In this document: one piece after another, positions 1 to 25,174 of the stretch
Position numbering within the stretch: the first letter of the stretch is position 1
Layout: every line of letters begins with the position of its first letter
Assembly: GCF_024700885.2 (NCBI RefSeq)
Contig: NZ_CP117016.1
Reading direction: 5' to 3' (one strand)
Source of the DNA: Escherichia coli
GTDB lineage: Bacteria > Pseudomonadota > Gammaproteobacteria > Enterobacterales > Enterobacteriaceae
Length of the DNA stretch: 64,000 bases
Made by a program: the position numbers and the translations under genes
The notes under the pieces: model-generated
The model's input: only the letters and a program-made list of their open reading frames with translations
What the model was told of the DNA's origin: nothing
Databases searched by the model: none

Positions 1-146
1 TGGTGAAGGGATAAGACAATTTAAAAGTATCGGATGGGGTCTGTGACATGATTGTGCTCCTGTGTAAGTTCAGGGCAGTATGTCGGGAGAAGCGCGTGAC
101 GGATATTAAAGGAGATTAAGAAGAAGGGGCCGGAGCCCCTGTGATG

Positions 147-395
147 TCAGCAAGTGCGAAACCCCTTGCAGTTACGCAGGAAAGCGATGAGAAGCGTCTT
201 TCCCTCAGATTTGCCGGTGCCGGAGAACCAGTGGTCGGGAGGCTCCCATGCTTCAATCAAATCCGCCAGTTTGCGGGCCTTTGAACGTGTGCAGTCAATC
301 GGGTCATTGGTTTTACGGGTATTAAAAAGGGTTTCCACCCCCCGGAATATCAAGGAGGGTAAACCACGTACCATTTGACATGCCCAGTGCCGCAC
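147..395 (-). CDS. hypothetical phage protein in tail region
   Basis: 82-aa ORF downstream of the tail tube gene in late-operon orientation; no recognisable motif. Confidence 0.3.
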   Translation of the reverse strand: MRHWACQMVRGLPSLIFRGVETLFNTRKTNDPIDCTRSKARKLADLIEAWEPPDHWFSGTGKSEGKTLLIAFLRNCKGFRTC

Positions 396-431
396 ATCGT
401 CTTCCTTTATCCGTCAGTTCAACACTCATCG

Positions 432-953
432 TCAGCCCCCGATATTGATACGGTAGTCAGTCAGTTGATCAACACCGCCGACCCGGAAGATGTTGGCCAG
501 ATAGTCCAGTTGCAGCAGCTCTTCACCATCCAGTACCTGTCTGATATACGTGCAGGTGAAGCTACTGGAGAACTCGGCGTTCTCGTGCTGTTTGAACGTC
601 CCCAGAGGGTTCTTCTTGAACATAATCGTCAGGAAGGTGACCAGCGGGATTTCGTCAATCAGCCCCTGCGAGCTGTAGCGCTGGACGCTGGAACGACACT
701 GCAGTGCCAGCGACCTGTACGGGTTAGCGGCAGACAGCATCGCATCGCGGTAAAAGCTGTTCCATTTGATTTCGCCTTCCAGTTTGTCAAAACCAGCCGG
801 GAGTTCCACCTTACCCACCATCCCCAGCGCCTTGTGTTCCTGCATAATCATGGAGACATCGGGGAGTTTAACTTCCTCAGCCCGTCCCAGCAGGTTAGTA
901 CCATCCAGATAGATGTTGGCATTCGTGATGCGGTTTATCTCAATCTTTGACAT
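432..953 (-). CDS. phage tail tube protein (Mu M-like)
   Basis: 173 aa, immediately downstream of the sheath gene with stop/start abutting; size and position typical of contractile-tail tube protein. Confidence 0.65.
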   Translation of the reverse strand: MSKIEINRITNANIYLDGTNLLGRAEEVKLPDVSMIMQEHKALGMVGKVELPAGFDKLEGEIKWNSFYRDAMLSAANPYRSLALQCRSSVQRYSSQGLIDEIPLVTFLTIMFKKNPLGTFKQHENAEFSSSFTCTYIRQVLDGEELLQLDYLANIFRVGGVDQLTDYRINIGG

Positions 954-2380
954 CAGTTGCCCCCTTTCAGGGTTAACAGGTATTCCGAGGTGATCTCAGT
1001 CTCAAACGTCAGTCGCTCCAGCGGCGGTGGTGGCGTATATTTGTAGCTCAGCAACAGGTGCCCGGCGGCCAGCTCCGTCTCCGGATTGCGGGCCGGATCA
1101 AACCAGCAACGGAAGCCCAGTACCGCACCATCACCAGTCATTTTGCGACCGTAGGCGTTGACCGACTCCGTCAGTGCATCAATCAGCGCCTGAGTAATCG
1201 GCATGTCGATGTACTGCTGGCTGAAATAACGAATGGACTCGTTGATCACATCACCGGTGCGGCGAACGTTCTCAAAGTTACGCATATGGGTGACCGTTGG
1301 CCATGCTGCCGTCCGGTTACCCCACAGACGAAGGCCGCTGCCGTAACTGCTGAATACCGTGGTGATCCCCTGTTCGTTAAGCAGGTTTACCTCACTCTGC
1401 GGGTCATCAATCATCGCGGACAGCTGGCGCTCCACGCCGGTGATCCCCAGAATCTCCTGATTGGAGGATGACCACCAGTAGCCCTTGTCCAGATCGACTC
1501 TGGCACGCAGACCTGCTGCACGCTGGCTGAGCGGCTCCAGACGCTCTGTGTTTGTCACCGGGTCATATACCTTCACATGCGGATAGCACAGACGGACGCG
1601 GTCGGAGCTGGTATTGAAGTTGATGGTGCCTTCCGGGCCACGACCTGCCAGAGCCTGTGCAAAGGTGGTACCGACAGGCGCATCAATGTAGGTTACCGCG
1701 CCCAGCTTCTCTGCCATGGCGATAAGCTCAACTGCGACACTCTTCTGGGTGCAGAACACCGGCGCAATCAGAATTTTGGCGAAATAGCCGTACAGGTTGA
1801 AGCTGTCGTTAAGCAGCTTCATGCCGGTTCGGTTTCCGGCGCTGTTCACCCCGCCGATGATGTCCGCCGCAGTCACCTTCGACGGGTCCGCGTACTCATA
1901 GCTCACCTTCACGCTGCCACCGGCCTCAATAGCCTTGCCCAGGTTCGTGAGCACACCCGCCTGCGCATCAACACGGTAGTCCGTGTTCGCCGTGTGGGTG
2001 GTGCTGCCTTCACTGTTTTTCACCACCACATTAGCGACAACCGGATGCGCCAGTCTGGCCTGCCCTGTCGATTTGTCAAAGGTAACCACCTCATCCTCGA
2101 TCGCCGTTTTATGTTTCGCCGGGTCGAGGACGTTAATGACCAGAACGGTGCCTGCACCATGGTCATAAATCGCATCCAGCGCCTGCGGAATGGTAAAGCC
2201 GGTGAACTGGCTGCCAAATGCCGCTGCGTCTTTCTCAGACAGGCACTGTACCAGCGTATTGACATCCCCCATCGGGGCGGTACCAATCAGGCCAATAACG
2301 GCAGATTTCACCGTTTTAACCGGGCGGGCTCCGTTTTCCACCTCAATGGTTTCGGGACCATGCAGATAGTTAGCTGCCAT
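953..2380 (-). CDS. phage tail sheath protein (Mu L-like)
   Basis: 475 aa, sheath-like size and position upstream of tube gene; family resemblance from memory. Confidence 0.75.
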   Translation of the reverse strand: MAANYLHGPETIEVENGARPVKTVKSAVIGLIGTAPMGDVNTLVQCLSEKDAAAFGSQFTGFTIPQALDAIYDHGAGTVLVINVLDPAKHKTAIEDEVVTFDKSTGQARLAHPVVANVVVKNSEGSTTHTANTDYRVDAQAGVLTNLGKAIEAGGSVKVSYEYADPSKVTAADIIGGVNSAGNRTGMKLLNDSFNLYGYFAKILIAPVFCTQKSVAVELIAMAEKLGAVTYIDAPVGTTFAQALAGRGPEGTINFNTSSDRVRLCYPHVKVYDPVTNTERLEPLSQRAAGLRARVDLDKGYWWSSSNQEILGITGVERQLSAMIDDPQSEVNLLNEQGITTVFSSYGSGLRLWGNRTAAWPTVTHMRNFENVRRTGDVINESIRYFSQQYIDMPITQALIDALTESVNAYGRKMTGDGAVLGFRCWFDPARNPETELAAGHLLLSYKYTPPPPLERLTFETEITSEYLLTLKGGN

Positions 2381-2624
2381 GGGCGTCCTCCGTTTTCACT
2401 TCGCTGTCACTGCTGCTTCTGCGCTTTGGTGACTGCACAGCCGGTGTGACGGCGGGTTTAGTATCTTCTGGTACCGGCGTCAGATGCTTCAGCGCCACCA
2501 GTACCTTCACGTAGTCATGCTCCTCCGGCAGGGAAACCGCCTTCCCCGGCCAGAGCAGGATTTCGGTTCCGTCCGACAGCGTGACGCCGCTGGCCGGGCC
2601 GGAATAGCGGTATGCTTTCATCAC
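2370..2624 (-). CDS. hypothetical small phage protein
   Basis: 84-aa ORF overlapping neighbours by a few nt in the late operon. Confidence 0.4.
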   Translation of the reverse strand: MMKAYRYSGPASGVTLSDGTEILLWPGKAVSLPEEHDYVKVLVALKHLTPVPEDTKPAVTPAVQSPKRRSSSDSEVKTEDAHGS

Positions 2625-24004: not shown

Positions 24005-24200
24005 AACCATTGTCTGTTTTCTTTTCTGGTATATGTACGCAGGATCATGCAGCGCAAGACTTCATCGTTCCCTGGGCTATGGCAGGCACTACGACACCGC
24101 GCATTACATCCTGTACATGACCGCCGTCATGTTGTTCTGGCCAGTCACCCTGCCAGCTGCAACCGACATTGTTGCCGACAGACTGAAAAAAAGGAGATGA
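23994..24200 (+). CDS. small membrane protein (2 TM)
   Basis: GGAGG RBS 8 nt upstream of ATG 23994; hydrophobic segments. Confidence 0.4.
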   Translation: MTTETIVCFLFWYMYAGSCSARLHRSLGYGRHYDTAHYILYMTAVMLFWPVTLPAATDIVADRLKKRR

Positions 24201-24201
24201 T

Positions 24202-24651
24202 ATGCAGAAAAAACGCCTGATACAGCTTATCCATATTGCCCGTAATGAACTGGGTATGGATGAAGACACCTACCGCCAGATGTTACAGGGGCTGACCGGT
24301 AAAGCCTCAACCAAAGGAATGGATACCACACAACTAAACTGCGTGCTGGAATCCATGAAAAAGAAAGGCTTTCGCGTTAAACCAGCCAGAAAAGCCAGCT
24401 CCGGTTTACCGCTGGATAACCATCCGCAGTCCAGGAAAATTCGTGCGCTATGGCTTGAAATGGCTGCTGCCGGCATTGTTCGTGACCGTTCAGAAAATGC
24501 ATTAGCGAGGTGGATCAAGCGGGAAACGGGCATCAGCGCCCTGCGCTGGCTCAGTACTGAACAGGCAAGCAGTGTTATTGAGAAACTGAAGAAGTGGCAG
24601 CGCAGAGCTGCGGGAGTCAAACATGAGCGACCTGAATCAGTTTCGAAGTAA
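24202..24651 (+). CDS. GemA-like (Mu gp16-like) regulatory protein
   Basis: 149 aa immediately upstream of mor, as in Mu. Confidence 0.5.
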   Translation: MQKKRLIQLIHIARNELGMDEDTYRQMLQGLTGKASTKGMDTTQLNCVLESMKKKGFRVKPARKASSGLPLDNHPQSRKIRALWLEMAAAGIVRDRSENALARWIKRETGISALRWLSTEQASSVIEKLKKWQRRAAGVKHERPESVSK

Positions 24652-25012
24652 GGGGCCGGAACTCCTGGTGGAACTGGCACAGCATACCTCTGAGACCGTT
24701 CGCGAGATTATTGATATTGAGCCCGAAGTTGCCGACCAGATTGGTCAGGCCGTCGCGAACCGAATGATGCAGGTCTGGGGCGGGCAAAACGTTTATTTCC
24801 CGATGGGCATGGTATGGAAGGTCAGTCAGCGCGACCGGGAAATCTTCAGGGAGTTTAACGGACGCAACCACCACGAACTGGCCCGCAAATTTGGTGTTTC
24901 GCTTCAGTGGGTCTACAGCGTGGTTAAGCGGGTAAGAAAAGAAGAACTGGATCGGATGCAGGGCAAGCTATTTGCTGATGAACCCGATGCAGATACGGAG
25001 AAAAAAGAGTAA
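24623..25012 (+). CDS. mor: Mor/C-family transcriptional activator
   Basis: 129 aa with C-terminal HTH HHELARKFGVSLQWVYSVVKRV. Confidence 0.7.
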   Translation: MSDLNQFRSKGPELLVELAQHTSETVREIIDIEPEVADQIGQAVANRMMQVWGGQNVYFPMGMVWKVSQRDREIFREFNGRNHHELARKFGVSLQWVYSVVKRVRKEELDRMQGKLFADEPDADTEKKE

Positions 25013-25100
25013 TATCTGCAATCAGGCTGGCGCGAGTTCTGTTTTTTTTCGGGCCGGTCTGATTTTCACATACTGTAAGGTTATTGCATATTCCTCCTAG

Positions 25101-25174
25101 TCTCTTCCCATTTTGACCCAGTTCTTCCCATAAATATCTCACTTATTCCCTGTCATTTATCTCAAGTCTAATCA
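25101..25174. repeat. putative transposase-binding repeats at prophage right end (three units; element ends TCA at 25174)
   Basis: tCTTCCCAttt, tCTTCCCAtaa and aTTCCCtgtCAttta within 70 bp of the point where cbtA-like host homology begins. Confidence 0.4.

Follow-up and report, generated by a model that had tools for sequence, protein, structure and literature searches.

A BcepMu-type transposable prophage of Escherichia coli with a single Mor/C-family gene and four predicted late promoters

Introduction

The gene layout of the BcepMu-like transposable phages has been textbook knowledge since 2004-2009. In BcepMu, genes 1-13 are bottom-strand genes and genes 17-52 top-strand ones, with the control of lysogeny where the two clusters meet, which is followed by a lysis cassette, Mu-like head genes and P2-like tail genes, and there is no inversion system (PMC2771037). 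Here we describe a 64,000-nucleotide stretch of Escherichia coli DNA (contig NZ_CP117016.1; hereafter the window), in which positions 1-25174 are the right-hand part of a BcepMu-type transposable myovirus prophage, essentially Escherichia phage PhiKM. The kind of prophage is already known and its gene layout has been published for its group, and only the in-silico model of its late promoters is new here.

Two further phages serve for comparison. In P2, one small activator, Ogr, turns on four late operons; the tail module of the present prophage is P2-like, whereas Ogr is a zinc-finger protein unrelated to Mor/C and P2 is not transposable. Mu duplicates 5 bp of its target, is organized in one direction (c-ner-A-B...mor-C-lys) and proceeds through three transcriptional steps, in which early transcription yields Mor, Mor the middle transcript, and C the late ones. 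The C-dependent promoters of Mu have a -10 element without a -35 and need an imperfect dyad at -52 to -34 (PMC2582627), and the consensus site of C is TTAT-N5-6-ATAA (PMC12867686). An earlier note on this DNA, made from its letters, had described a Mu-like prophage with a non-canonical arrangement and a single Mor/C-family activator; its observation holds up and its interpretation is borne out in part, as described below.

A 37-kb prophage with exact, transposon-like ends

The element measures 37,120 bp, of which the window contains the right-hand 25,174 bp. The remaining 11,946 bp, to the left of the window, carry the tape measure gene, P2-like baseplate genes, the tail fibre gene, an inverted fibre segment and a Gin-like invertase. 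Position 1 of the window lies inside the tail-assembly chaperone gene and is the edge of the window, not a prophage end; thus, of the extent given in the earlier note (1-25174), the right end is exact and the left one is a window cut. The matching genome is that of E. coli MLI114 (NZ_CP117013.1), with one mismatch over 27 kb.

PhiKM (PQ738613), which GenBank taxonomy places in Caudoviricetes; Bcepmuvirus, with uropathogenic E. coli as the host, showed 99.6% DNA identity across the whole 25 kb (megablast). Klebsiella phage KP12 (OM835952) and Escherichia phage Phi06_2974 B (KM389306) matched about 72% of the 25 kb at about 86% identity. In contrast, no megablast match was obtained for the 25 kb in either BcepMu or phiE255. 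The ICTV genus threshold is about 70% nucleotide identity genome-wide, and this prophage falls outside Bcepmuvirus in the strict nucleotide sense, although GenBank places PhiKM there. A literature search found no paper on PhiKM. The PhiKM record is a partial, permuted assembly with a host-like gene between its permuted ends, which is only suggestive as a hint of host DNA at the virion ends.

The prophage begins with TG and ends with CA, as BcepMu and phiE255 do, and is flanked by a 6-bp target duplication (Table 1). Strain NCTC9022 has an independent insertion in hycE, with another 6-bp repeat, ATCAGC, on its two sides; 6 bp were thus duplicated in both insertions, unlike the 5 bp of Mu. The right-end 250 bp are present in 623 of 5,426 complete E. 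coli genomes. Among the matches listed with at least 80% coverage, homology ends at 25174 or one base further in nearly all, and the host DNA beyond this point varies (ycaL in many ST131 strains, hycE, paaZ, a gene for an MFS transporter, and others). Altogether, more than 500 complete E. coli genomes have this end with unrelated host genes beyond it. These results indicate that the element is transposon-like and has moved many times, and that its right end at 25174 is exact, in agreement with the identification of a transposable Mu-like prophage in the earlier note.

Among the genomes listed, the insertion in cbtA was seen in strain MLI114 only. There, the prophage splits cbtA (yeeV) into window positions 25175-25366 and positions 39663-39854 of locus L003, and the cbeA antitoxin gene is intact on the far side. 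In the EC958 genome, a prophage termed 'Phi2' lies at about 1.006 Mb and has a 2,067-bp fibre segment that inverts actively (PMC4134206); it may be the ycaL copy of the PhiKM-type family.

The two-cluster layout is that of BcepMu

Of the 55 annotated prophage genes compared, 38 have a homologue in BcepMu, with order and orientation preserved, at 31-76% amino acid identity (blastp). On the early side, the collinear matches are gp01 (Mor/C, 54%), gp02 (GemA), gp08 (59%), gp09 (68%), gp10, gp12 and gp16; from the end of the prophage inwards, a terminal Mor/C gene is followed by genes for GemA, an ExeA-type ATPase, an rve transposase, a DUF3102 protein and the gp12 and gp16 homologues, as in BcepMu and phiE255. 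On the opposite strand, gp21 (holin) through gp52 (fibre) are matched in order: holin, SLT endolysin and Rz, then Mu-like head and packaging genes and P2-like tail genes (gp27-gp52). This comparison bears out the resemblance to BcepMu suggested in the earlier note, as well as the leftward run of the late genes from about 13.4 kb to position 1, the rightward run of the early operon, divergent from the repressor gene, and the position of the mor-like gene as the last before the end.

Since the organization of BcepMu has been published as such (PMC2771037), the two-cluster layout is canonical for a known group, and the term 'non-canonical' holds for the comparison with Mu only. An assembly error or inversion in an ordinary Mu-like prophage, which had been named as a possible refutation, would also give divergent clusters. 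This explanation has next to no probability, given that the junction of late, accessory, repressor and early genes is collinear in 435 complete E. coli genomes, that the gene orders of PhiKM, KP12, BcepMu and phiE255 agree with it, and that the layout is described in the literature.

Several differences from BcepMu were observed. Beyond the BcepMu gene set, the prophage has a Gam (61% identical to that of Mu) and a Gin (76%) of Mu type, the latter with an invertible fibre segment. A Dam-type methylase gene and three unknown accessory open reading frames (ORFs) stand between the repressor and the late cluster. Conversely, for BcepMu gp03-gp07, among them the HU-like gp04, and for the gp53 acyltransferase, blastp detected no homologue, and the repressor is unrelated to BcepMu gp17 by the same method. 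Related elements also differ here: KP12 and the NCTC9022 prophage carry other accessory and immunity genes.

Blastp matches to Mu were limited to Mor/C, GemA, Gam, TerS/TerL, portal, F, G, gp36, gp47, part of tail fibre S, and Gin. Both phages are transposable temperate myoviruses with Gin and an invertible fibre segment, whereas the prophage has a P2-type tail, a transposase of the rve/Tn552 type in place of MuA, a different ATPase, divergent clusters and no middle operon. No homologues of MuA, MuB, Ner or c were found in the prophage (blastp against Mu); in this, in its divergent layout and in its single Mor/C gene it departs from Muvirus (Mu, D108). Hence the names ner, transposase and MuB-like, as given in the earlier note, describe positional analogues without blastp homology to Mu Ner, MuA and MuB; the names Gam and Mor stand, the latter with a full-length match to PF08765. 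The invertase and the invertible tail-fibre segment of the E. coli lineage lie at L003 37375-39584, outside the window, and Gam at 21470-22000 within it; the presence of Mu-type Gin together with Mu-type Gam makes this lineage a BcepMu/Mu mosaic.

A single Mor/C-family gene with a C-like C-terminal sequence

The last gene of the prophage encodes a protein matching Pfam Mor (PF08765) over residues 9-116, corresponding to model positions 1-107 of 107 (E 1.5e-43). Its similarity to Mor of Mu is about the same as that to C (blastp). An alignment with Mor, C and BcepMu gp01 has 20 invariant columns and a C-terminal helix-turn-helix, ELARKFGVSLQW(V/I)Y, which is nearly identical to that of BcepMu gp01. 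The near identity of these regions would fit a DNA motif shared by the two phages.

For a second family member, the whole 37-kb prophage, including the 11.9 kb outside the window, was searched by tblastn with four queries and by a six-frame profile built from Mor, C, BcepMu gp01 and the prophage protein. None was found: the sole match had an E value of 4e-57 and the next one 0.34. With the same profile, BcepMu, phiE255, KP12 and the NCTC9022 prophage each gave one Mor/C gene; Mu, the positive control, gave both Mor and C. These results confirm that no C homologue accompanies the mor-like gene.

At the C-terminus, the alignment has QGKLF for the activator, QRDLF for BcepMu gp01, QPDLF for Mu C and QPSLL for Mor. 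In Mu C, QPDLF serves as a beta-clamp-binding motif required for late transcription, and clamp motifs in the Mor/C family are Qx[D/E][L/M]F, N-terminal, and/or C-terminal QPDLF (PMC12867686, 2026). The N-terminus of the activator has no clear clamp-binding motif in the alignment. Because its C-terminus has the Q-x-x-L-F form of Mu C rather than the QPSLL of Mor, the single activator looks C-like at this end, judged by sequence.

Four conserved sites resemble C-dependent promoters

Four intergenic sites on the late strand, three in the window and one to its left (Table 1), share the core yTAA-N6-TTAA followed by a weak -10-like hexamer, nAnnCT, without a -35 and with identical spacing. With one mismatch allowed, the pattern TAA-N6-TTAA-WA-N22-A-NN-CTGYC has exactly four matches in 45 kb, all of them on the late strand, intergenic and upstream of operon-first genes. 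The core alone occurs 7 times, compared to 0.2 expected. Sites 3 and 4 were found by a relaxed search with the core alone and, although found in this way, carry the downstream AnnCTGYC block at the same spacing.

The same core occupies the same four positions in KP12, BcepMu and phiE255, where the surrounding intergenic DNA cannot be aligned between the enterobacterial and the Burkholderia phages. Sites are also kept in IMG/VR relatives at 72-74% and at 42% protein identity, and in those at 72-74% the core of promoter 2 is identical within diverged flanks. In more distant IMG/VR contigs (L047, L048, L050-L054), the region upstream of the protease/scaffold gene contains other perfect palindromes, GGAAnnGCTTCC, CAAAGTGCTTTG and GGAACCnnGGTTCC, and at least four different palindromes were seen at the position of promoter 2. 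Such differing palindromes are what co-evolving dimeric activators would produce, and they provide, from distant Mu-like and BcepMu-like elements, a ready data set on covariation of activator and site in the Mor/C family.

If nAnnCT is taken as the -10 element, the dyad spans about -50 or -49 to -36, and the predicted sites then match the architecture of the C-dependent promoters of Mu. As predicted here, the likeness to Mu extends to the number of late promoters (four, without a -35, each with a bipartite A+T-rich dyad upstream) and to the location of one of them, which corresponds to that of Mu P_I, between the G and protease genes. A consensus scan for sigma-70 found no promoter upstream of the holin gene and a good one before the early operon. 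A terminator-like hairpin stands before promoter 2, another before promoter 3 and a further one after the mor-like gene.

Another reading of the conserved motif is that it is not an activator site at all, its TAAAAT being an ordinary -10 element of a promoter that is constitutive or regulated in some other way, or the whole a site for the repressor or a host factor. In this E. coli phage, TAAAAT does match five of the six -10 consensus positions at promoters 1 and 2, and the motif is A+T-rich. However, the position reads TAAAAG, without the critical final T, in BcepMu, phiE255 and L049 and, at promoter 2, in KP12, and it reads TTAATA at sites 3 and 4; on these grounds TAAAAT was rejected as a -10. 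In addition, no -35 stands at the proper distance from it, unregulated promoters on lysis and tail genes would kill the lysogen, and by inspection the motif misfits the consensus for IHF, which was rejected as well. We therefore regard this reading as quite improbable.

Two other interpretations were discarded. A first version of the motif, TTAAAATC-N6-8-CCTGYATTT, had variable spacing and fitted only two sites; re-anchoring on TTAA-N6-TTAA brought four sites and the downstream CTGYC block into register. Sites 3 and 4 seemed to lie in reverse orientation because the core is quasi-palindromic; the WATC extension and the downstream block place them on the late strand.

At promoter 4, the W-like baseplate gene has its ATG precisely at the predicted +1, 7 nt beyond the -10-like hexamer. 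This is the case for the E. coli and Burkholderia phages alike and hints at a leaderless mRNA; the -10 lies within a short G+C hairpin. A core-only copy of the motif was also seen inside the invertase gene (L003 39157-39171), possibly by chance.

A two-step circuit is the probable arrangement

From these observations, we consider it likely that the prophage at cbtA is governed by a two-step cascade consisting of a repressor, one early transcript and a single Mor/C activator that directly drives four late promoters. In the lysogen, the helix-turn-helix repressor would shut off the divergent early promoter. Upon derepression, one rightward early transcript of about 8.6 kb would extend from the gp16-family gene through the GemA-like gene to the single Mor/C-family gene and end at a terminator. 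A dimer of the activator would then bind the quasi-palindromic yTAA-N6-TTAA, centred about 42-43 bp upstream of the predicted start, at four -35-less promoters on the opposite strand, preceding the genes for the holin, the protease/scaffold, the tail chaperone and tape measure, and the W-J-I-fibre products. Two steps, early and late, would thus replace the three of Mu. In a BcepMu microarray, gp16 through gp1 were co-induced by H2O2, with fold changes dropping from about 10 to about 2 towards gp1 (PMC2830190), a gradient consistent with one early transcript.

The earlier note had offered two explanations for the lack of C, direct activation of the late promoters by the Mor-like protein or an unrecognized factor. 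The four conserved promoter-like sites give the former in-silico support. Under the latter, a second regulator would stand between the Mor-like protein and the late promoters, or act with it, giving three tiers and a C analogue from outside the Mor/C family; the gp12-like winged-helix protein, the GemA-like protein and a small early ORF are candidates. Several conserved early genes of unknown function leave room for such a factor, and the gp12-like protein has an IclR-type winged helix-turn-helix conserved in BcepMu. The four sites, however, show the architecture and half-site logic of Mor/C-dependent promoters, and the activator ends in the C-type Q-x-x-L-F, not in the QPSLL of Mor. The motif is also absent upstream of every regulator gene, leaving no candidate 'middle promoter'. 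We judge a second regulator, the main rival reading, unlikely on balance, with a real share of the probability nonetheless.

Several points weigh against direct activation by the Mor-like protein. The gp12-like and GemA-like proteins are themselves conserved early regulators. The step from activator to late promoter is one that we infer, both for this phage and, as far as was found, for BcepMu. The expectation of zero for the full pattern is partly circular, because the sites themselves supplied the pattern, and the count of the core shares this reservation. Free of it are three observations, namely the downstream block common to sites 3 and 4, the conservation of position and sequence between two distant clades of phages, and the retention of sites in the IMG/VR relatives. 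The -10-like hexamers, which are weak, were assigned by spacing and conservation only, and in the E. coli phage the conserved TTAAAAT could pass for a -10. This copy may not be fully functional, because a small ORF in the tail region has a 1-bp frameshift, due to a one-base insertion in the G-run at 337-343 relative to PhiKM and to the intact 282-bp ORF of the NCTC9022 prophage; either this copy has truly been inactivated by mutation there, or the assembly is in error at the homopolymer. As to novelty, the literature search found no description of BcepMu late promoters, Summer et al. 2004 being outside its coverage, and the motif may already have been described there.

A wider version of the two-step cascade, for BcepMu-type phages in general, is more tentative, and we give it slightly less than an even chance. 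In this version, one Mor/C protein, the last product of the early transcript, would directly activate four late promoters with TTAA-N6-TTAA in two tiers; the delay, which in Mu is due to a separate middle stage, would come from the position of its gene at the end of the 8.6-kb operon, possibly with coupling to replication via the C-type clamp motif QGKLF, and the W mRNA would be leaderless.

As a discovery, the prophage has little weight, being a deposited and classified phage type. The family nevertheless occurs in about one in ten complete E. coli genomes; the pandemic lineage ST131 is among its carriers and has it next to ycaL. With E. coli as the host, the predicted circuit of one activator and four promoters, as well as the idea of clamp binding by Mor/C proteins, can be tested by standard E. 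coli genetics instead of in Burkholderia.

Features of the prophage

The coordinates are collected in Table 1.

Table 1. Features of the prophage in window coordinates, with predicted elements marked as such
Feature	Position	Strand	Remarks
Late cluster	1-13436	-	RefSeq annotation; blastp to BcepMu gp21-gp41
Tail chaperone gene, start	ATG at 49	-	rest of gene beyond window edge
Predicted promoter 3, upstream of tail chaperone/tape measure	74-119	-	core cTTAATCTCCTTTAA; site cTTAA-TCTCCT-TTAA-TATCC; -10-like CATACT 77-82, block CATACTGCCCTG
Terminator-like hairpin	125-140	-	GGGGCUCCGGCCCC + U-rich run; directly upstream of promoter 3
Small ORF	147-429	-	downstream of tube gene
Tube gene	432-956	-	late cluster
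Sheath gene	953-2380	-	late cluster
Protease/scaffold gene	4849-5964	-	major capsid protein and head-tail genes next in order
Predicted promoter 2, between G-like and protease/scaffold genes	5992-6037	-	core tCTAAAGCAGATTAA; site tCTAA-AGCAGA-TTAA-AATCG; -10-like CAAACT 5995-6000, block CAAACTGTCTCC
Long hairpin + U-run	6098-6135	-	just after G-like gene; centroid -19.6 kcal/mol, z -2.9
G-like gene	6179-6637	-	late cluster
TerS, TerL, portal and F-like genes		-	late cluster; in this order after the Rz-like gene
Rz-like gene	11709-12359	-	late cluster
SLT endolysin gene	12343-13083	-	late cluster
Holin gene	13086-13436	-	start 13436
Predicted promoter 1, lysis/head operon	13459-13504	-	core cTTAACGCGCTTTAA; site cTTAA-CGCGCT-TTAA-AATCC; -10-like GATGCT 13462-13467, block GATGCTGTCTCC; no -35; predicted start ~13455
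Accessory block	13567-15844	.	2.3 kb, genes on both strands; between late cluster and repressor
Gene for 242-aa protein	13567-14295	+	weak Pfam P-loop match
134-aa ORF	14271-14675	-	accessory block
71-aa ORF	14674-14889	+	accessory block
Dam-type adenine methylase gene	15080-15844	+	accessory block
Strong terminator-like hairpin	15851-15875	-	11 bp; between methylase and repressor genes
Repressor-like gene	15961-16317	-	XRE-type helix-turn-helix, 118 aa, no peptidase domain; divergent from early operon
Early promoter candidate	16335-16363	+	TTGATA-17-AATAAT, 10/12 matches; repressor/early intergenic region; sigma-70 consensus scan
Early operon	16411-25012	+	rightward, ends with Mor-family gene
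BcepMu gp16-family helix-turn-helix gene	16411-16599	+	62 aa, first early gene; TIGR04111, 97 bits vs cut-off 34
Small winged-helix regulator gene	16652-16960	+	BcepMu gp12 homologue; IclR-type winged helix-turn-helix
DDE (rve) transposase gene	18224-19993	+	68% identical to BcepMu gp09; no blastp match to MuA
ExeA-family AAA+ transposition ATPase gene	20004-21170	+	59% identical to BcepMu gp08; no blastp match to MuB
Gam host-nuclease inhibitor gene	21470-22000	+	61% identical to Mu Gam; no BcepMu homologue
GemA-like (gp16 family) gene	24202-24651	+	RefSeq annotation; blastp
Mor/C-family activator gene	24623-25012	+	only one, 129 aa; last gene, 162 bp before prophage end 25174
Terminator-like hairpin closing early operon	25020-25064	+	-27.2 kcal/mol, z -4.1
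Right terminus	25130-25174	.	ends ...ATCA; GATAAATG-type repeats equally distant from each end (14-21 nt)
Target-site duplication	25175-25180	.	GTGAAC, 6 bp; insertion inside cbtA toxin gene, CP4-44-like element
Predicted promoter 4, between V and W baseplate genes	L003 33689-33733, outside window		core and flank tTTAA-ACGCCT-TTAA-TATCA; -10-like block AATACTGCCCCC; counterpart BcepMu L004 30772-30830

The late genes have a G+C content of 55-59%, and the region of the accessory and repressor genes one of about 48-51%. The segment 13567-16317 is a swap region, in which the NCTC9022 prophage and KP12 carry other genes and a different repressor. When the accessory ORFs were compared with PADLOC defence systems and NCBIfam, the methylase alone was matched, and the unknown ORFs match no known defence family. 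Mitomycin C induction is not obviously suited to this prophage, because its repressor is a 118-aa protein with a helix-turn-helix only and no S24 peptidase domain; a correlation of this kind is discussed in PMC8541194.

In the early operon, the product of the first gene is 46% identical to BcepMu gp16 and occupies the position of ner without being a Ner homologue. A DUF3102 gene is listed between the winged-helix regulator and the transposase, and small ORFs lie between Gam and the GemA-like gene. The transposase is annotated in RefSeq as a DDE-type integrase/transposase and has NCBIfam matches only below threshold, to models of IS481 and IS21 DDE transposases. The related phages that tblastn found for it are BcepMu-like ones and transposable phages of Pseudomonas, and phiE255 gp40 bears the Pfam annotation rve (PF00665); the type is rve/Tn552-IS1604, as in the BcepMu-like phages.

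For the hairpin upstream of promoter 3, BcepMu has a counterpart, GGCCCGCTTCGGCGGGCC+T6, at the same position. The long hairpin after the G-like gene sits in the physical middle of the prophage, at about 48-51% of the total length, and its loop, TTTATAAAGGCTTTAC, is common to BcepMu (L004, about 18727-18757). The conservation of this loop from E. coli to Burkholderia phages is more than a plain terminator requires. In Mu, the strong gyrase site is annotated in the corresponding G-I intergenic region, and sequence comparison gave no clear match between that region and the central hairpin.

Chromosomal surroundings

Further along the window, at about 44700-57600, the G+C content falls to as low as 30% across an O15-type O-antigen cluster (wzx, wzy, fnlA and others). 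This region belongs to the ordinary E. coli chromosome and is bordered on one side by gnd, ugd, wzzB and the his operon and on the opposite side by the genes for colanic acid. Two ISAs1 transposase genes lie next to galF within the O-antigen region.

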